From a virus: 29,596 nucleotides of DNA. The stretch lies in UHGV virus genome UHGV-0100673. One strand, 5' to 3'. The translations under genes and the position numbers were made by a program. Of this stretch, positions 5,595 through 15,941 are shown piece by piece (positions within the stretch are counted from its first letter, which is position 1; every line of letters begins with the position of its first letter). The notes below the pieces were generated by a model, which was not told the DNA's origin, did not search any database, and saw only the letters and a program-made list of their open reading frames with translations.

Positions 5595-5613
5595 ATTGCA
5601 TGGAGAAGATAAG

Positions 5614-5871
5614 ATGCAGCAGTATCACTATCCACTGGAAGACGGATTTACCGAAAGGATTCACACGCCGGGAGGCGTCAGGTCACTGGTGGAGGGATCG
5701 CACTTGATGAAATTACTCCGGGATCTCGATAAGGATGGATTTAATGTCGATGGCCCACTTGCCGAACTGACTGCACTGATTAACTACGTCACCAGCTCAC
5801 AGATGTCTATGCAGGATCTGCAAACACATCTCGACTATTGTGCCGAACAATTACGAAAACAAACCAGATAA
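5614..5871 (+). CDS. Small SOS-controlled antirepressor-like protein (homologous to the C-terminal domain of the adjacent BRO-N protein)
   Basis: ATG 5614 with SD GGAG 6 nt upstream (the ORF track's 5596 start is TTG). GVRSLVEGSHLMKLLRDLDKDGFNVDGPLAELTALINYV...DLQTHLDY aligns by eye with SGVLGLTENSLLMNLLNQLQEDGHDVSGAAAELTTMFCYI...DIQTHAEY at the C-terminus of the 6187..6882 product. Confidence 0.65.
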   Translation: MQQYHYPLEDGFTERIHTPGGVRSLVEGSHLMKLLRDLDKDGFNVDGPLAELTALINYVTSSQMSMQDLQTHLDYCAEQLRKQTR

Positions 5872-6186: not shown

Positions 6187-6882
6187 ATGACAGCTACAAA
6201 AAGCACGTCCATTTTTTCTTTCGAATCCCAAGCCGATATACGAGTAATCGTCATTAATGGTGAGCCATGGTTTATCGCTTCAGATGTTTGTCGGGCTATA
6301 GGCATAGCAAACCATCGAGATGCTGTTCGAAAACTTGATGATGATGAGAAGGGCGTCGCTTCAACCGACACCCCTGGCGGTGAGCAAGAATCGATCATCA
6401 TCTCCGAGTCAGGCCTCTACACACTGATCCTCCGCTGCCGCGACGCAGTGACACCAGGCACTATCCCCTACCGCTTTCGTAAATGGGTTACAGGTGAGGT
6501 TCTTCCTCAGATCCGCTGCACCGGAAGTTACATTAAAAACTCGCTCCCGCAGGAAGAACGCATAAAGATGGTTGCCGACCAGGTAGCCAACGCCACAGCA
6601 TCAGCAGTGATGCAGGCGATGAAGATAGAGAACAAAACCTACAGTGCCCCACTGAAGCCCGGCTACCGCAGCCTGATTCATTCGCCGTCTGGTGTTCTCG
6701 GCCTGACGGAGAACTCACTGCTGATGAATCTGCTGAACCAGTTACAGGAAGACGGGCACGACGTATCGGGCGCGGCGGCGGAGCTGACCACCATGTTCTG
6801 CTACATCGTCGGTGTGAGCAAATGCCTGCGTGATATCCAGACGCACGCGGAGTACATCAACGACAAAGCAGGGTTCTTCTGA
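6187..6882 (+). CDS. BRO-N domain phage antirepressor
   Basis: N-terminal region ...IRVIVINGEPWFIASDVCRAIGI...ESGLYTLILRC...FRKWVTGEVLPQIR matches the BRO-N domain pattern; C-terminal about 60 aa homologous to the small upstream protein. Confidence 0.75.
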   Translation: MTATKSTSIFSFESQADIRVIVINGEPWFIASDVCRAIGIANHRDAVRKLDDDEKGVASTDTPGGEQESIIISESGLYTLILRCRDAVTPGTIPYRFRKWVTGEVLPQIRCTGSYIKNSLPQEERIKMVADQVANATASAVMQAMKIENKTYSAPLKPGYRSLIHSPSGVLGLTENSLLMNLLNQLQEDGHDVSGAAAELTTMFCYIVGVSKCLRDIQTHAEYINDKAGFF

Positions 6883-7011: not shown

Positions 7012-7338
7012 ATGACAAAACTTGGATTCGTGATGAGAGGTCCGGTAAGAAGCGGAACTCATGCAAAGCGTAGCAAGAGTCGTATTTTTACTGGTAAGGT
7101 TGTAGCACGTAAATCAGCTATTGGCTCGTTCCATAGTGAAAATGCGGCATTGCGCCATATTTTTATCAGCACAAAGCCAAGAGCATCCGCTGATGTGCAT
7201 ACAATGACTATTCCTATCACAAAGAATATAAAGCGGATAAAAAAGCTCTCATCTGCAGAATCAAAAGAGATATCTTTCCGCCAGCTTAACTCATTAGAAA
7301 CGCATATGAAGGAAGAGGAATTCGATGTTTTTGAGTGA
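7012..7338 (+). CDS. Hypothetical basic protein, first gene of a two-gene overlapping module (candidate antitoxin/partner)
   Basis: SD GGAG 7 nt upstream of ATG; 108 aa, Lys/Arg-rich with acidic C-terminal tail EEEFDVFE; 3' end overlaps the next gene by 14 nt. Confidence 0.5.
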   Translation: MTKLGFVMRGPVRSGTHAKRSKSRIFTGKVVARKSAIGSFHSENAALRHIFISTKPRASADVHTMTIPITKNIKRIKKLSSAESKEISFRQLNSLETHMKEEEFDVFE

Positions 7339-7837
7339 GTATAGCGGGAAGGTTATACCTACTGGTGAGTTTAAAACTGATGACTTTCTGATTTCGCTAA
7401 AAGATGCTTTTAAACAACACTGGCGTCATGGTCATCATCCTGATCTGGGAAAAGATACTCTTTTTGAAAGACCAGACGAAGTATTAGGTTTCCATCTCAG
7501 AAAGGTTCATGTCAATATTGGTGAATATGCATCATATTCATACTCATGTACTGAACAGTGTTGGGATGAGTGGTCATATGGATTGATTGATGAACAAGGA
7601 AATTACAGGCCAAAACCAACCAGTAACGCATATCTCATATATGCAGTCAATGAAATAAGAGATGCAGCCTTACTAGCTTATTGGGACCCGCCCGCACACA
7701 CCAAAGCTAACGCAAAAGTTTGGATGGATTCCGTATTGAATTTCACAAAATTATTTCATGAACGAACGAATACAGCTCCACTTAGTAGAAATGTTTATCC
7801 GTGGGATTATTCGTACAAATCCAAAAAGCCTGCATAG
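7325..7837 (+). CDS. Candidate YafO-family toxin-like protein (tentative)
   Basis: Start ATG 7325 lies inside the upstream gene with SD AGGAAGAGGA ahead of it. Blocks LGKDTLFE...HLRKVHV and AYLIYAVNEIRDAALLAYWDPPAH resemble, from memory, the conserved FGRDALYD...VAHIHL and HLVYCQG...AWLLIAILKPEPH blocks of E. coli YafO. No search was run. Confidence 0.45.
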   Translation: MFLSEYSGKVIPTGEFKTDDFLISLKDAFKQHWRHGHHPDLGKDTLFERPDEVLGFHLRKVHVNIGEYASYSYSCTEQCWDEWSYGLIDEQGNYRPKPTSNAYLIYAVNEIRDAALLAYWDPPAHTKANAKVWMDSVLNFTKLFHERTNTAPLSRNVYPWDYSYKSKKPA

Positions 7838-7918
7838 TAGTTTTTTATGGACGAAACAAAAGTCAGTGCTACACTCATTGACGCCACATTGAAGTGGCTT
7901 ATAGATGGAAATTTCACA

Positions 7919-8080
7919 ATGAAAAAAGCATTTGCTGCACTGTTCGTTTTGTTGTCTCTGGTAGCTTCAACTCAGGCCTTTGCCGGTCGTTGTCAGCACG
8001 ACAGCGATACTGCCGCTGACGGCTCCCGCTGCGGTGGGCGTTCTGCGGATTCCCGCCCGGGTGGCGGTGGCATTCGTTAA
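7919..8080 (+). CDS. Small secreted Cys-containing peptide
   Basis: Internal start MKKAFAALFVLLSLVASTQAFA is a canonical signal peptide; mature part about 31 aa, Gly/Ser/Asp/Arg-rich with two Cys. The longer ORF from 7847 adds 24 non-signal residues. Confidence 0.45.
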   Translation: MKKAFAALFVLLSLVASTQAFAGRCQHDSDTAADGSRCGGRSADSRPGGGGIR

Positions 8081-8086
8081 AAACAA

Positions 8087-8102
8087 GGCCGCGAAAGCGG
8101 CC
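8087..8102. terminator. GC hairpin, likely intrinsic terminator for the minus-strand operon
   Basis: GGCCGC-GAAA-GCGGCC perfect stem; on the minus strand it is followed by TTGTTTTT, immediately after the stop of the 8112..8408 gene. Confidence 0.6.
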
Positions 8103-8111
8103 TGTGACATG

Positions 8112-8408
8112 TCACGTTCCTTTTCTGAATGATAGCCGTTCGAAAAATGATGACATTCCACCGCAGACAATAGCAAAGATGATCCCACCAAAGAAGAGAA
8201 GGCCAGCCTGCCACCACTCCCACCGCCATACATCCACAGCGCCAATCATACCAACAATCGCTCCAACAAACGGAATATAACTCACGACAAAAGCAACGGG
8301 AGCTGCAATTACCCAGTGCACCCCCCACCATGATTCAAGCCCAGCCATAATTGCTGCCAACTGAAAAAGACCAACGACGATATAAACAATGAATCCTATA
8401 GCTTGCAT
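8112..8408 (-). CDS. Small multi-pass inner-membrane protein
   Basis: 98 aa, almost entirely hydrophobic helices with Trp-rich loops; SD AGGTGA upstream; last gene of the minus-strand structural operon. Confidence 0.55.
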   Translation of the reverse strand: MQAIGFIVYIVVGLFQLAAIMAGLESWWGVHWVIAAPVAFVVSYIPFVGAIVGMIGAVDVWRWEWWQAGLLFFGGIIFAIVCGGMSSFFERLSFRKGT

Positions 8409-8603
8409 GTAGTCACCTATTTACCCATTAAAAATCAGAGGCCTCCCCTCAATAAGGCTTGCAACAAGAACTACTCCCTGCACAACAAAGATGAACCAGC
8501 AAATAGCTTGAGTCTGAGGGTTAAGAAAATATTTGTAGCGGTCAATAAATAACAATCCACCAGAAATTATCACACTCAAAATAATTAAAAACACAACACT
8601 TCC

Positions 8604-11078
8604 TTATTGCGGAGTGACATCCTGAGGTCGCCACCAGTATGTCTGGTTAAACTCTTTCTTCGAACGTTGCTCCATTTTACGCAAATAGCCTGGTGAAAAA
8701 TACTCCTGCATCTGGTTAAAGATCATGTGATCGAGAGCCGCCTTCAAGTACCAGAGATTCGCACCAGGCATCAAACCTTTCCCCAGCTTCACCAGATCAC
8801 CACCAGTCTGCTCACTCTTCCCTTCCACAGCATTTAACGGTATGCCCTGAGCAATCTTCACTACGTCATCAACCAGACCAGCTACCGGGCCAAGCATCGA
8901 CGCCAGCGCGCCGCTTCCGTACCTAGTGTGATCTGACAATAAAAAGTCACCATAAAGGCCAAGACCACCACCTTTCAGTAGAGCACCAAGCCAGAATTTT
9001 GCGGCATCTTCTCCTGTCATCTCTCGAGGATTACGACCAGACGCAAGGTCGTTAAGTTGTTGCGACAAAGCGCCAAGAATGGTCGTACTGGCAATAAACG
9101 TCGCAATATATGCCGCACGCCCACCAGCAGACGGCATACCCATAGCGCGTGACCAGTGACGCATAACAACCGAGATAGGGAACGATTTAAACAGGAAAAC
9201 ACTTCTCGTTAATTCACCTTTCCATGTTCCACGCTGAATACCAGAACCGGTTATCAGTTGCTCACGTGCTCCCGGTGTAATAACAGCCATATCAACTTCT
9301 TCAGTTACGGCACCGAGCAGTTTACGCATTGCCTCAAATTTCACGCGTTCAGGCTCACCAAGATGTTTAACTGCTGAATCAGGGATACGCATAATGCTTT
9401 CCGGTGTCAGCATCGTATTATTACCGTTACCCCAGTCCTCCTGTTGCGCCAGCTTCCATACGCTCCAGTCTGTGTCAGTAATCCCTTTGCTTTTCAGGAT
9501 ACGAAAATCAGAGTCATCGAGGCTACGAAGGTCTGGTGTTCGTGACACTACTTCTCCCAGGCTTCCCATCATGGTTACGCCATAGGCGCGCTTGTGCGCA
9601 TCTGACCATGCTGTAAGCCCACTGGCACGCATTACCGCCGTTGCCGCCCAACGAGACACTGACGGCCCCATATTATCCATCGCCCAGCGGTTAACGCTGC
9701 CAAGTAGAGATTCCATCGCCAGACCAGCGCGGCGCGCCCGCGCAAGTTCTGTACGGTTCGTTGGGTCCATAGCTTCAAGCTGGTTGCGGAATAACTGGTT
9801 CATTGGAAGGTTGGTAACCTTCGCAGACAGATACATGGTTCCAAGATCAGAGAACGATGACAGCAACGCGGATCCGAGTCTGCTGGCAACCAGCCAGTTG
9901 CGGATATTGTCAGACCATCGCGCGATGTGCGGATTCGCTACAGGCTGTGTCTTTCCGGAAATAAAGTTGTACAGATTCTCTGTGTTGTTCGCCAGCCGCT
10001 CGACTTTACCGGTTTTACTCGGGTTAGCGGTTGCCGTTTCTGCCTTCACCTGATCAAGAAGAGAGCGGAAAACATGATCGGGGTTTGGGCCATATGTTTC
10101 CACCAGTGCAATATCTTTACTGATACCTTCCAGGTGACCGACCATGATTTCCCATAGAGAGCGATCGCCATAAAGTTGCTGATATTGCAGATAGGAATCT
10201 GCATCTTTGAAATGTATCTGTCGTGATGCATTACCACGGTTAGCACGTGCGCCGGAAATTCGCATTCCGGTATCAGTAAGCTTATTCAGCCCACCAGTAG
10301 CGATCGTGTTATAAGCCTCTCCAAGAAATGCAGACAACTCGGCATCGTTCATCAGTTGTCCATCGGCTCGGATATAATATTTGCGATCCAGCTTACCTAT
10401 AACATCGCTAACCCACTTATCCTTTGATACCGCCCCAACCTTTTCCATAGAATGATGTTGAGGGATCCCCCAGTTTTCGAGATAGCCAATGTCCCCACCA
10501 GCATCATTAAACCGGCGGCGCAGCAGCTCTGTAACTTCTCTCCACGCCTTAGCACCTTTTCTTGCTTTAGCATTGCCAGTATTTTGCCCCCGCATTTCAT
10601 ATACCAGGTCACGTACGCCCGCTTCATCTTCAAACAGACCAAAAAAGCGAGGATCAACTGCTTCGAATGCCTCCTGCAATTGACTCAATGCATAATCACG
10701 GGTGGCTTTTGTTCTGGATTCAACAGAGAGGAAATTAGATTTACCGTCTGCATTAAAAGCTATAGTACGGTTAAGAGCGCCAAGTTTCCCATCAGCCCCT
10801 TGATAGCTATTGATAAATTTATCCAATCTCTGACGCGCGGCTATAGTGAGAGCCACACGACGTTTCTTTAATGCCGCTTCTCGCTGTAATTCTTCAGATG
10901 CCAATTGTGCTGCTCGATATAGCCGCTCTGATTCGGAAAGTTGTCGCCACGACATCGGGTCATCACGAGCAATGGAGCGCATATTTCGATAAATGCGGTC
11001 TTCAATGTTCTGTATTTCTCGCGCCGTTAACGTGCGCTGCGCCGCCTGCTGGACCGCTTGTATACATTCCTGTCTCAT
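8604..11078 (-). CDS. Internal virion / ejection protein (gp16-like position)
   Basis: 824-aa ORF in the run of large proteins between the tail tube genes and the end of the structural operon; call is positional. Confidence 0.55.
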   Translation of the reverse strand: MRQECIQAVQQAAQRTLTAREIQNIEDRIYRNMRSIARDDPMSWRQLSESERLYRAAQLASEELQREAALKKRRVALTIAARQRLDKFINSYQGADGKLGALNRTIAFNADGKSNFLSVESRTKATRDYALSQLQEAFEAVDPRFFGLFEDEAGVRDLVYEMRGQNTGNAKARKGAKAWREVTELLRRRFNDAGGDIGYLENWGIPQHHSMEKVGAVSKDKWVSDVIGKLDRKYYIRADGQLMNDAELSAFLGEAYNTIATGGLNKLTDTGMRISGARANRGNASRQIHFKDADSYLQYQQLYGDRSLWEIMVGHLEGISKDIALVETYGPNPDHVFRSLLDQVKAETATANPSKTGKVERLANNTENLYNFISGKTQPVANPHIARWSDNIRNWLVASRLGSALLSSFSDLGTMYLSAKVTNLPMNQLFRNQLEAMDPTNRTELARARRAGLAMESLLGSVNRWAMDNMGPSVSRWAATAVMRASGLTAWSDAHKRAYGVTMMGSLGEVVSRTPDLRSLDDSDFRILKSKGITDTDWSVWKLAQQEDWGNGNNTMLTPESIMRIPDSAVKHLGEPERVKFEAMRKLLGAVTEEVDMAVITPGAREQLITGSGIQRGTWKGELTRSVFLFKSFPISVVMRHWSRAMGMPSAGGRAAYIATFIASTTILGALSQQLNDLASGRNPREMTGEDAAKFWLGALLKGGGLGLYGDFLLSDHTRYGSGALASMLGPVAGLVDDVVKIAQGIPLNAVEGKSEQTGGDLVKLGKGLMPGANLWYLKAALDHMIFNQMQEYFSPGYLRKMEQRSKKEFNQTYWWRPQDVTPQ

Positions 11079-12886: not shown

Positions 12887-15396
12887 TGCGGAATATCTCC
12901 GGAGAATCTCTGACGCTTCTGTGTCAGATCAAGAACAACGGGAGAACCATCATCTTTTAGCAGATAACCAGTACCAAGTTTCACCAGGTACTGACTATCG
13001 CCGTAACTTTGCAAACCATACTGACCAGGCGGTGTTTTTATCCCTGTGCCAACAACTTGTTCATTCCAAGCCTGATTAACCTGCTTATCGAATTGCTCTG
13101 CAGACATTCCCCACGGCAAAAGAACATTCCCCATTCCGTTATAGTCATGCACGCCACCTGTAGCTACGTTAACAGCCTGTTTCCAGATATCATTGTCAAT
13201 TTCGCCTGATACCACGCCTTTTTTCGCCATCACACCAGCGTAATAGTCCTTTGCGATCTCGTATGCCATTGATGCCCCCTGAGCATCACCAGCAAATGCA
13301 TCCTTCACCATGTCAGAAAACTCAAGGCGAAGATCAGCATCTTTAGGCATCGGAATACCTTTCGCGTCATCAGTACCTTTACGAGCCGCCGCGCCAGCAA
13401 GAATTGTCTGCGCAGCGGTTTCTGGAGACACGGAAACATCAGGATTAAACCAGTTTTTTTCTGCCAAAATACCACCTGGCTTATCCATCAGTATCCCGGC
13501 AACGGCAGCAGATGGAGCGTTGGCACTGATCTGCTGTAGTGCTGACATATACACCTGCCCACCACCAGTGCTCTGCCTGATGGTATCGAGATATGCTGCC
13601 TGTTGGGAAACGGGCGCATCACGAAAGAAAACACCGATCTGATTGGCCTCGTCTTTGGAAAAGAACGTCAGTGGAGTGCCATATGACTTAGCAAGGTCAC
13701 TGACCTGAGCAGCACGCAAGGCAACGCTCTGTCCAAAGTTATCCTTATTGCTCATGTCGATAGGCTTTGCCTGTCCGGCGGCAAGAGAGAACTGTACAGG
13801 ATCAGCCTGTCGCTGCTTTATCACCTGACTTGCAGCCGACACAACGTTGTCATAAAGAGCGGCTCGTGCCGCATAACCCTCCCCTGTCTCACCAGTATCC
13901 GGGCGTAATTGCTCAACATATGCTGTAATGCTGCTTGTCGGCATGTTGCGGAAAGAGCCTATATACTGTCCGGCGATTTGCGTATTTCTGAACTCGGTAT
14001 ATCGCAGGTTTCCTTCTCTTACTCCATAAGCTGCAATAAAATCAGCCTCACCAGGTGGGTTAGGAAATTCAACGCCACGCATATACGCAGCTGTCGCATC
14101 GCGAACCTGGCTGTCAATCATCGTTTTATATTCAGCCTGCTGCTGCCGACGCAGTTGATCCGCCTGTCGCATAAAACTTGCCTGCGCCTCAGGAGATGCC
14201 GCATCGAATGCTGCATTACCGGTATAGCGTTTGGTGTTGGTTGGAATTGTTGATAAACCAAGTGCTGCACTGACACCAGCAGTTAACTGCTGATCACTGT
14301 ATGGCTGGCTACCGTTCTCATGATGGATAATGGCTGCACAAAGCGCCTTCAGGGTATCAGGATTAGATGCATCGAGAGGCTCATCAGCAGAAACGCCAAG
14401 TTGTTCGCACACTGCTTTGATATACGACATAGTGTCATTTTTATCAGCAGGCGGTGCCCAGCGATTAATTATCTCGCTGACGGTATCAATACCCTGCCTC
14501 TGATACGACATCAGGTTCCGCCCTAATGCACGAATCCCGTGTTCAGGTGTTTCGAATTTAGCAAATCGACCATCATCACCGGTCTGGCCTACCCACGGAT
14601 TAGTTTTGCTGTATTCGAGATTTCCTGGGTTATTGTTGCGTATGCCACGGGCACGCTCGGAAGAGTCACTATCTGCTACAGCACGGCGAGCTCCAGCAGC
14701 AGTATCACTTAACTCGCCATTACTTTGGATGAATGCGGTCGCATTGTTTGCCGACCACTGGGACAATGCAGCATCAGCAACCTTCTCTTTAAACTCGATT
14801 TTCTTGGCCTGGATTTGCTCGTTGCTCCAGCCATGTGCAACACCGTACTCCTCAATTTGCTGGAAAGTTTGCTTGTTAGCCAATACGTATGCGGCGTTGT
14901 CGCCATACAATGCTGCGGCATTTTTACCATTGTTCAGCAGTGTCGCCTGAAACTGGCCTTCTTCGTAGGCATTAATTTGCCCTATCTCGTGTCGCCCGGC
15001 CTGCGTAGTGAACTGAATGCGCTGCTGCTGCGCCTGCTGCATGAAAGCATTACGAGCCTGTTCATCCGGCAGCGACATAGCAAGTTGTTCGACCTGAGCA
15101 TCAAACTGCTGCGTATACTCATGGCCTTTTCCAATAGCATTTTTCCCTTTCAGGTTAAGCAATCCTGTTTCAGGATTATTCAGCAGATCGCTGCTTATCT
15201 GACTGAGGTTAAGAGATGCCTCCTGAGCCAGAGCGATATTGGCACGCTGTTTTGCCTGCCCCAAAACATCAATTGCCTCTGTCCCTGCCCGAACAAAAGC
15301 ATCACCAATACCTTGCTGAGAAAACGTCTGCAAGCCTGCTGACTGAACTCCACGACTCTCAACCTGACGTCCGGATACTGTTGGTACGACTGGCAT
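12883..15396 (-). CDS. Internal virion protein (gp15-like position)
   Basis: Start placed at internal ATG 15396, which overlaps the upstream stop by 1 nt and has SD GGAGG; the ORF-track start at 15471 would overlap the upstream gene by 75 nt. Contains a segment RNNNPGNLEY...IINRWAPP of unknown function. Confidence 0.55.
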   Translation of the reverse strand: MPVVPTVSGRQVESRGVQSAGLQTFSQQGIGDAFVRAGTEAIDVLGQAKQRANIALAQEASLNLSQISSDLLNNPETGLLNLKGKNAIGKGHEYTQQFDAQVEQLAMSLPDEQARNAFMQQAQQQRIQFTTQAGRHEIGQINAYEEGQFQATLLNNGKNAAALYGDNAAYVLANKQTFQQIEEYGVAHGWSNEQIQAKKIEFKEKVADAALSQWSANNATAFIQSNGELSDTAAGARRAVADSDSSERARGIRNNNPGNLEYSKTNPWVGQTGDDGRFAKFETPEHGIRALGRNLMSYQRQGIDTVSEIINRWAPPADKNDTMSYIKAVCEQLGVSADEPLDASNPDTLKALCAAIIHHENGSQPYSDQQLTAGVSAALGLSTIPTNTKRYTGNAAFDAASPEAQASFMRQADQLRRQQQAEYKTMIDSQVRDATAAYMRGVEFPNPPGEADFIAAYGVREGNLRYTEFRNTQIAGQYIGSFRNMPTSSITAYVEQLRPDTGETGEGYAARAALYDNVVSAASQVIKQRQADPVQFSLAAGQAKPIDMSNKDNFGQSVALRAAQVSDLAKSYGTPLTFFSKDEANQIGVFFRDAPVSQQAAYLDTIRQSTGGGQVYMSALQQISANAPSAAVAGILMDKPGGILAEKNWFNPDVSVSPETAAQTILAGAAARKGTDDAKGIPMPKDADLRLEFSDMVKDAFAGDAQGASMAYEIAKDYYAGVMAKKGVVSGEIDNDIWKQAVNVATGGVHDYNGMGNVLLPWGMSAEQFDKQVNQAWNEQVVGTGIKTPPGQYGLQSYGDSQYLVKLGTGYLLKDDGSPVVLDLTQKRQRFSGDIPQ

Positions 15397-15941
15397 TATA
15401 ATCCTCCGGGTAATCTGGTTCCTGCTGCTGCCCCGATTGGCGCAGGAGTGCTTTGAGTAAACGGACTCCACGTCCCACCAAACATCTGGTACGCACCGTA
15501 TGCCTTCAGAGGCGCAGTGAGTAATGTTGTTGCTGCTCCCACATTCCCCTGTTTACGGGCTGAACTGGCTTCTGCTTTATAGTTGGCAGCCTGAACCTGA
15601 TAACCGTAAGCCTCGCGTTGCGCGTTATTCACCGTCGTCAGCGAATCAAGAGCGCCAAACTGGGCAGTGTCGCCAAATATATCCAGCGCGTTACCTGTAG
15701 ATAAATCAGCGCCGGTAGCCCCCATTGTCGCCGCCTGTGTACCAAGCCGCTGTCGGGTCTCTCTGCGTCGTTGCTCAGCTTCAGCGTTACCTCTGTTTAT
15801 TGCATCATTTGCCTGAGCTGTGGCTATATCTGCGTTCGCTTCTGCAACCTTCGAGGCATACTTTCCCTGTTGGTACTGGGTGTATGCCTGAATGCCACTC
15901 ATGGCGAGCATTGCGCCACCAGCAATAACCGGATCGCACAT
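15396..15941 (-). CDS. Internal virion protein (gp14-like position)
   Basis: 181 aa, Ala/Gln/Thr-rich, translationally coupled to both neighbours. Confidence 0.5.
   Translation of the reverse strand: MCDPVIAGGAMLAMSGIQAYTQYQQGKYASKVAEANADIATAQANDAINRGNAEAEQRRRETRQRLGTQAATMGATGADLSTGNALDIFGDTAQFGALDSLTTVNNAQREAYGYQVQAANYKAEASSARKQGNVGAATTLLTAPLKAYGAYQMFGGTWSPFTQSTPAPIGAAAGTRLPGGL

Follow-up and report, generated by a model that had tools for sequence, protein, structure and literature searches.

What do two small hydrophobic genes do for a short-tailed phage when they stand between the last large gene of its ejection-protein operon and the terminator of that operon? The window analyzed here is the whole stretch of 29,596 nucleotides of the UHGV virus genome UHGV-0100673, and it is a Uetakevirus (epsilon15/phiV10-like) prophage of E. 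coli. In a megablast search, positions 7800-8700 matched the Uetakevirus phages HEMP4, phiv142-3, phiV10 and TL-2011b along with SPN1S relatives; segment 8081-8620 was found at 100% identity in a prophage of E. coli PK6 and, at a coverage of at least 80%, in 205 of 5,426 complete E. coli genomes. The minus strand carries, in this order, the gene of a T7-gp14-family core protein (15396..15941), genes for proteins of 862, 600 and 824 aa, the two small ORFs and the terminator. Beyond the terminator lies a plus-strand block comprising a gp19-like ORF, a Bro-N antirepressor, a 108-aa ORF, a YafO-like ORF and a small secreted protein, and past this block the tailspike gene and the lysis cassette are found on the minus strand again. 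The 824-aa product (8604..11078, minus strand) is an internal virion (ejection) protein, hereafter IVP-D, which matches phrog_684 (virion structural protein, E=0) and whose gene is the last large one in the ejection-protein operon. It is 99.4% identical to p20 of phiV10 and a homologue of epsilon15 gp17, which has been assigned as the homologue of T7 gp16 (IVP-D) (PMC4819975). In the PK6 prophage (L012, 3734..6433), IS2 and ISKox3 transposase genes replace the 5′ region of the tailspike gene, the rest being near-identical to the window; this copy is probably defective, though the cassette of the two small genes is intact.

The first of the two genes had been suspected in the sequence-only reading, as an unannotated hydrophobic ORF of about 50 aa with a non-ATG start at about 8440..8600. 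Such an ORF exists and starts with GTG, but its coordinates are 8421..8594 (minus strand) and its product, a two-helix (hairpin) membrane protein, has 57 aa. The start lies 10 nt past the TAA of the 824-aa gene, and a Shine-Dalgarno sequence AAGGAAG (8599..8605, minus strand), which overlaps that stop codon, is predicted to serve the ORF via translational coupling. In diverged relatives the Shine-Dalgarno position of the family is occupied by TAAGGAGG or TAAGGGGG, the ribosome-binding site being stronger in the diverged members (TAAGGAGG), and the start codon, always at the same position, is GTG in 41 loci, TTG in 5 and ATG in none. The second gene (8112..8408, minus strand) follows after a gap of 12 nt and encodes a multi-helix membrane protein of 98 aa; it starts with ATG and is preceded by the Shine-Dalgarno sequence AGGTGA (8413..8418, minus strand), 4 nt before the start codon.

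Comparison with the Klebsiella copies gave a dN/dS of 0.18 for the 57-aa ORF (18 of 35 differences at third codon positions) and of 0.036 for the 98-aa ORF (47 of 60), and ratios above 1 in the alternative two frames; codon 7 of the 57-aa gene encodes Ser in both aligned copies, as AGT in one and TCT in the other. The 57-aa family comprises 13 protein clusters, found exclusively in Enterobacteriaceae, in which the length is kept at 56-58 aa. Since dN/dS is low and reading-frame-specific, and both length and start of the 57-aa ORF are conserved, the two ORFs are more than chance; by these substitution patterns, they are identified as genuine protein-coding genes under purifying selection. The 57-aa ORF is absent from the PGAP annotation of E. 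coli PK6, despite the 100% identity over the segment, and the GenBank entry of Klebsiella phage BUCT711 omits it too; a few NCBI entries do carry it, as a 57-aa hypothetical protein. In phiv142-3 (L001, 6272..6628), GenBank has the 98-aa gene as a 118-aa protein starting from a TTG further upstream. Compared with the window, an insertion of 1 nt abolishes an in-frame stop there, so that the 118-aa call is probably over-extended, and it probably runs across the end of the unannotated 57-aa ORF.

Both products are predicted to be small inner-membrane proteins. The 98-aa protein had been described at the outset as a multi-pass membrane protein, and this is supported by three hydrophobic blocks in its hydropathy profile and by an AF2 model with four helices (residues 2-28, 32-42, 46-59 and 65-97; pLDDT 88.5), of which helices 2 and 3 have merely 11 and 14 residues. 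Its C-terminus is the sole net-positive segment, suggesting that this end is cytoplasmic. The conserved core reads P46-x2-G-x3-G-x2-GA, then W61-x-W63-x-WWQA; among 42 diverse homologues P46 is invariant, while the glycine zipper G49-x3-G53-x2-G56 and W61-x-W63 are at least 90% conserved. AF2 models the 57-aa protein (pLDDT 76) as a hairpin made of helices 2-20 and 26-49, and a D-R-Y-K-Y turn is conserved in its family.

The 98-aa protein matches PHROG 3075, a family with no assigned function, over its full length (residues 1-98 to profile positions 1-98 of 98, E=2.7e-52). Pfam and NCBIfam have no family for either protein, and neither matches any PADLOC-DB defence model at E up to 1; structure comparison returned no fold or structural neighbour for the 98-aa protein, and our literature search found no experiment on any member of the two families. 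In an exhaustive profile search, the 98-aa family extended to 704 cluster representatives at E≤1e-3 (242 at E≤1e-10) and, in contrast to PHROG 3075, this wider family reaches non-phage genomes and multidomain proteins. Some homologues are parts of larger proteins with RDD, MORN or unnamed membrane domains; these fusions were considered as a clue to function and pointed nowhere. Others occur in alphaproteobacterial genomes, next to resolvases or integrases or to ordinary metabolic genes, as in a Caulobacterales MAG where the homologue adjoins argD/argF-like genes. The presence of the domain in alphaproteobacterial chromosomes and its fusions to RDD and MORN domains suggest that its basic activity is not phage-specific.

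Several of these distant settings show an arrangement of their own. In Microvirga (L014, 4989..6526) and in a metagenome contig (L115, 1923..3465), a homologue of 96-98 aa is followed by a protein of about 411-416 aa, which has a signal peptide in Microvirga; the two genes overlap by 4 nt in the former and lie 10 nt apart in the latter, and they represent a recurring two-gene unit outside phages. In two alphaproteobacterial loci (L017, 5304..5594, and L021, 5306..5617), the homologue is followed by a second hydrophobic protein of about 100 aa (…PYGYY…LR…), with resolvase or integrase genes nearby. Furthermore, an integrative island that encodes a primase (DUF927), SSB, AlpA and an integrase contains a 103-aa homologue, 63% identical (L112/L113, 5001..5312). 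An 872-aa SLT-domain protein precedes this homologue, with 360 nt between them that hold no called gene, and Abi_2 or SocA/Panacea genes lie nearby. The 98-aa family would thus travel on non-phage mobile elements with defence genes too.

Alignment of the window with phiV10, BUCT711 and phiv142-3 showed conserved flanks and a different intervening sequence. The 824-aa gene ends in one of these flanks, with TAAGGA, and the other consists of the palindrome GTGACATGTCAC and the terminator. This perfect 12-bp palindrome (8104..8115) contains the stop codon of the 98-aa gene, abuts the terminator stem, extending the predicted hairpin, and is kept in all four genomes whatever the slot holds; it appears to be the distal (recombination) boundary of an exchangeable slot. 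In phiV10 both window genes are absent and the slot contains an unrelated 46-aa two-helix gene (p21), and in epsilon15 a third unrelated gene, of 64 aa (gp18), is found. We surveyed the slot in 80 IMG/VR loci in which the C-terminus of IVP-D is 97-100% identical to that of the window. The pair of 57- and 98-aa genes was present in about 41 and therefore missing from about half of these near-identical loci; about 30 carried a gene of 46-48 aa, in 8 a small membrane ORF was accompanied by a 126-aa lipoprotein (LVGC lipobox, PHROG 3716), and 1 had the 126-aa lipoprotein alone, which makes at least four alleles of the slot. The gene immediately upstream of the 98-aa gene varies as well. Among 78 loci with a close 98-aa homologue it belongs to the 57-aa family in about 62, and in the remainder it encodes a signal-peptide protein of 123, 102 or 175 aa, a 103-aa two-helix protein or a 54-aa hairpin protein; in every case it is co-directional with the 98-aa gene and 4-13 nt away from it. 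In one diverged locus, L114, the place before the 98-aa gene is taken by a YecR-type lipoprotein, and Salmonella and Citrobacter prophages have a 58-aa gene, then a lipoprotein. All products of the slot are membrane proteins, lipoproteins or other envelope-targeted proteins.

Behind IVP-D, the series of co-directional genes invariably ends with the 98-aa gene in prophages of E. coli, Klebsiella, Serratia, Kosakonia and Salmonella, the last being a lineage with a different genome layout. The identity of the 98-aa protein to the window is discordant with that of IVP-D: phiV10 has an IVP-D 99.4% identical to that of the window and no 98-aa cassette, in L114 the values are 83% for IVP-D and 57% for the 98-aa protein, and in Salmonella, Kosakonia and Serratia they are 24-26% and 53-58%, respectively. 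This suggests that the 98-aa gene is a mobile cassette which keeps to this slot and, considered with its absence from phiV10, that it is neither a co-evolving partner of one ejection-protein allele nor needed for the virion. The two genes are not common to all phages sharing the ejection apparatus, both being absent from phiV10 and epsilon15, and comparison of gene content shows that they should be dispensable for an infectious virion. The initial proposal that these are accessory rather than virion-assembly genes is therefore borne out by phiV10, which has neither, and by the polymorphism of the slot among near-identical phages. The two genes, which occupy a variable slot, encode uncharacterized small membrane proteins of the phage accessory kind, and very probably they form an accessory envelope cassette and not a part of the virion.

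As had also been noted from the letters, the 98-aa gene is the last one before a strong terminator. The intrinsic terminator of the ejection-protein operon (8076..8103, minus strand) consists of a stem-loop at 8086..8103, directly following the 98-aa gene, and of TGTTTTTAAC; the hairpin has a stem of 7 bp, 6 of them GC (AGGCCGC-TTTC-GCGGCCT), with TGTTTTT next to it on the minus strand, and the equivalent site in phiV10 is annotated as a terminator. No terminator was found between the 824-aa gene and the small ORFs, and a consensus scan of the minus strand at 8604-9400 gave no sigma-70-like promoter with at least 9 of 12 matches. The promoter candidates of a lenient scan, among them TGTGATAAT at 8566..8574, were rejected, having just 8 of 12 matches inside the AT-rich coding sequence of the 57-aa gene. 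In Kosakonia, Salmonella, Serratia and L114, the 98-aa homologue lies 1-35 nt behind the preceding gene. Because the 57- and 98-aa genes share the strand of the operon and are coupled to it, and because they lack a promoter for themselves, the simplest reading is that they would be co-transcribed with the late ejection-protein operon. This operonic setting and the lack of a promoter leave production in the lysogen, where exclusion pays most, unsupported. Classical morons have their own promoter and terminator; here a terminator (the hairpin with its T-run) is found directly downstream, and consensus scans detected no independent promoter directly upstream.

The plus-strand block ends at the other side of the same hairpin, with a convergent gene for a 53-aa signal-peptide protein (7919..8080, plus strand). 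This protein belongs to phrog_14503 (“membrane associated protein”, moron category), and its gene is called by PGAP in PK6; the ORF spans 7847..8080, with 7919 as the likely true start, and the product consists of the signal peptide MKKAFAALFVLLSLVASTQAFA and a Gly/Arg/Asp-rich tail of 31 residues. The gene is located beside the slot also in BUCT711. For plus-strand transcripts no T-run follows the shared hairpin, and read-through antisense to the 98-aa gene is therefore possible. Further away (7012..7837, plus strand), the 108-aa ORF overlaps by 14 nt a 170-aa ORF, in a region of low GC content (39-41%); the 170-aa product is a YafO-family type II toxin according to PGAP, its match to Pfam YafO_toxin being below the cut-off (19.7 vs 25 bits), and the two ORFs may form a toxin-antitoxin or abortive-infection pair. 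The epsilon15-gp19-like ORF of 91 aa (5596..5871, plus strand) matches phrog_450, as do the C-terminal residues 148-229 of the Bro-N antirepressor (6187..6882, plus strand), which implies that the same small domain occurs twice in the block.

Regarding the function of the cassette, our best guess, to which we give roughly one chance in three, is superinfection exclusion, with genome entry being disturbed at the inner membrane. The 57- and 98-aa proteins would hinder the entry of incoming phage genomes at its inner-membrane step, in the manner of SieA, T4 Imm and HK97 gp15. Rather than a specific ejection-protein allele, the target of the 98-aa protein would be the membrane as such or a conserved component of the host membrane, which is the more likely because this protein is far better conserved than the adjacent ejection protein. 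HK97 gp15 and T4 Imm are small membrane exclusion proteins that act on DNA entry at the inner membrane; like the window proteins, they are small membrane proteins encoded near virion or ejection genes and dispensable for virion assembly. The location of the 103-aa island homologue next to Abi_2 and SocA/Panacea was counted in favor of exclusion, and the lack of similarity to SieA, the lack of a PADLOC match and the existence of non-phage homologues were counted against it.

By position, the closest analogue is sieA of P22. SieA is a protein of the inner membrane (162-164 aa, three transmembrane helices) which blocks DNA injection, with escape mutations mapping to the ejection proteins gp16 and gp20 (PMC10883804). 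Of 66 P22-like phages, 22 carry the sieA gene, in each case placed between gene 16 (the analogue of T7 gp16) and gene 9 (tailspike), and the protein occurs in three types less than 30% identical (PMC10883804). The 98-aa gene too sits between a gene-16-type ejection gene and the tailspike gene, and its distribution among relatives is likewise patchy and diverse. The precedent of temperate podoviruses invoked at the start thus holds for the position; it does not extend to strand, promoter or sequence. P22 sieA is on the opposite strand to gene 16 (convergent), has its own promoter and is expressed by the prophage, whereas the window genes are co-directional with the late operon and tightly packed, with gaps of 10 nt and 12 nt and no promoter found; the orientation of sieA/immI belongs in this window to the plus-strand block. 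SieA is also longer than the 98 aa of the window protein, an hhalign comparison between SieA and the 42-sequence profile of the 98-aa family gave a probability of 0.3% over 11 aligned columns, and the SieA motif FxRYPxEAxxFNK is absent from the 98-aa sequence. Exclusion is demonstrated for SieA, while the role of the 98-aa protein is putative.

The nearest counterparts by place are p21 (46 aa) of phiV10 and gp18 (64 aa) of epsilon15, annotated as putative integral membrane protein or hypothetical protein, which occupy the same slot, immediately behind the IVP-D homologue and ahead of the same terminator, and are two-helix hairpins like the 57-aa ORF. Homology to the 57-aa family was rejected, since hhalign detected no similarity for either of them; moreover, they fall into separate PHROGs (7892 and 29212), start with ATG in contrast to the GTG or TTG of the 57-aa family, and no second (98-aa) gene comes after them. 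A bolder form of the exclusion reading, which we consider improbable, makes the “WxWxWWQA” domain of the 98-aa protein a new, widespread inner-membrane class blocking podovirus genome ejection and the slot an arms-race locus, in which epsilon15-like prophages would shuffle numerous unrelated envelope proteins such as hairpins, four-helix proteins and lipoproteins as exclusion or counter-exclusion factors.

Among the alternatives, the one that survives best, although unlikely, is that the genes are generic membrane cargo whose benefit (membrane stress tolerance, transport or toxin immunity, for example) has nothing to do with phage entry, and that the end of the operon before the terminator merely tolerates insertions. 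It would account for a family of 704 cluster representatives, some of them in non-phage chromosomal settings such as that of the Caulobacterales MAG, for the fusions to RDD, MORN or other membrane domains, and for the lack of a defence-family match in PADLOC-DB. It fits less well with five diverged enterobacterial prophage lineages that hold the gene in the identical place and orientation after IVP-D, though its history is discordant with that of the latter, and with the fact that all alternative alleles of the slot are likewise envelope proteins, a distribution more patterned than expected for passive cargo.

Rather doubtful is the possibility that the two proteins are late-expressed lysis modulators (holin, antiholin or pinholin-like) tuning the timing of lysis, as co-transcription with late genes, the small multi-helix architecture and the conserved glycine zipper might indicate. 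The 98-aa protein has a weak Pfam match to Phage_holin_5_2 (E=0.012), but this reaches 16.3 bits where the cut-off is 29.2, and just one of 42 family members gives any match; a holin assignment (Phage_holin_5_2, Hol44) was therefore rejected, on a score below the gathering threshold and on inconsistency within the family. The phage has, in addition, a complete lysis cassette elsewhere, with two holin-family genes, an endolysin and an Rz-type spanin, members of the 98-aa family exist outside phages, and the alternative alleles of the slot are lipoproteins or periplasmic proteins and not holin-like. A spanin pair, composed of the lipoprotein and inner-membrane alleles, was also considered and dropped, the 98-aa protein having no periplasmic domain and an Rz-type spanin being already present.

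It is less probable still that the proteins help the ejection machinery, either as low-copy virion components reaching the inner membrane or as chaperones keeping the hydrophobic IVP-D harmless until packaging. Translational coupling to IVP-D and constant adjacency to it would be in line with such a role, and small hydrophobic proteins are easily overlooked in virion proteomics. Nonetheless, phiV10 is infectious without the 57- and 98-aa genes while its IVP-D is 99.4% identical, the three small slot genes of the different phages are unrelated in sequence, and the genes do not diverge in step with IVP-D; the published model of ejection by three proteins, which has no small membrane component (PMC8954989), was also counted against it. 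Finally, O-antigen modification (serotype conversion), offered in the sequence-only reading beside exclusion, through a small O-antigen polymerase inhibitor or a GtrA-like flippase, is very improbable: the alpha-polymerase inhibitor gp22 of epsilon15 is also small, with 66 aa and two transmembrane helices, but hhalign gives it a probability of 0.15% against the 57-aa family, Pfam shows no GtrA, acyltransferase or Wzy-type match, and the conversion genes of epsilon15 and phiV10 adjoin the tailspike gene (in epsilon15 after it) and not this slot.

Independently of function, the slot is a clean case of a cassette-exchange hotspot restricted to envelope proteins, and a 57-aa gene with a conserved non-ATG start, usually missed by standard annotation, stands whatever its role. 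The module of 57- and 98-aa genes is common in E. coli, as its 205 occurrences indicate. The passage of DNA across the inner membrane is the least understood infection step in short-tailed phages; if these proteins do block it, they would offer a handle on what a gp16-type conduit needs in the host membrane, and they would account in part for why lysogens resist related therapeutic phages.
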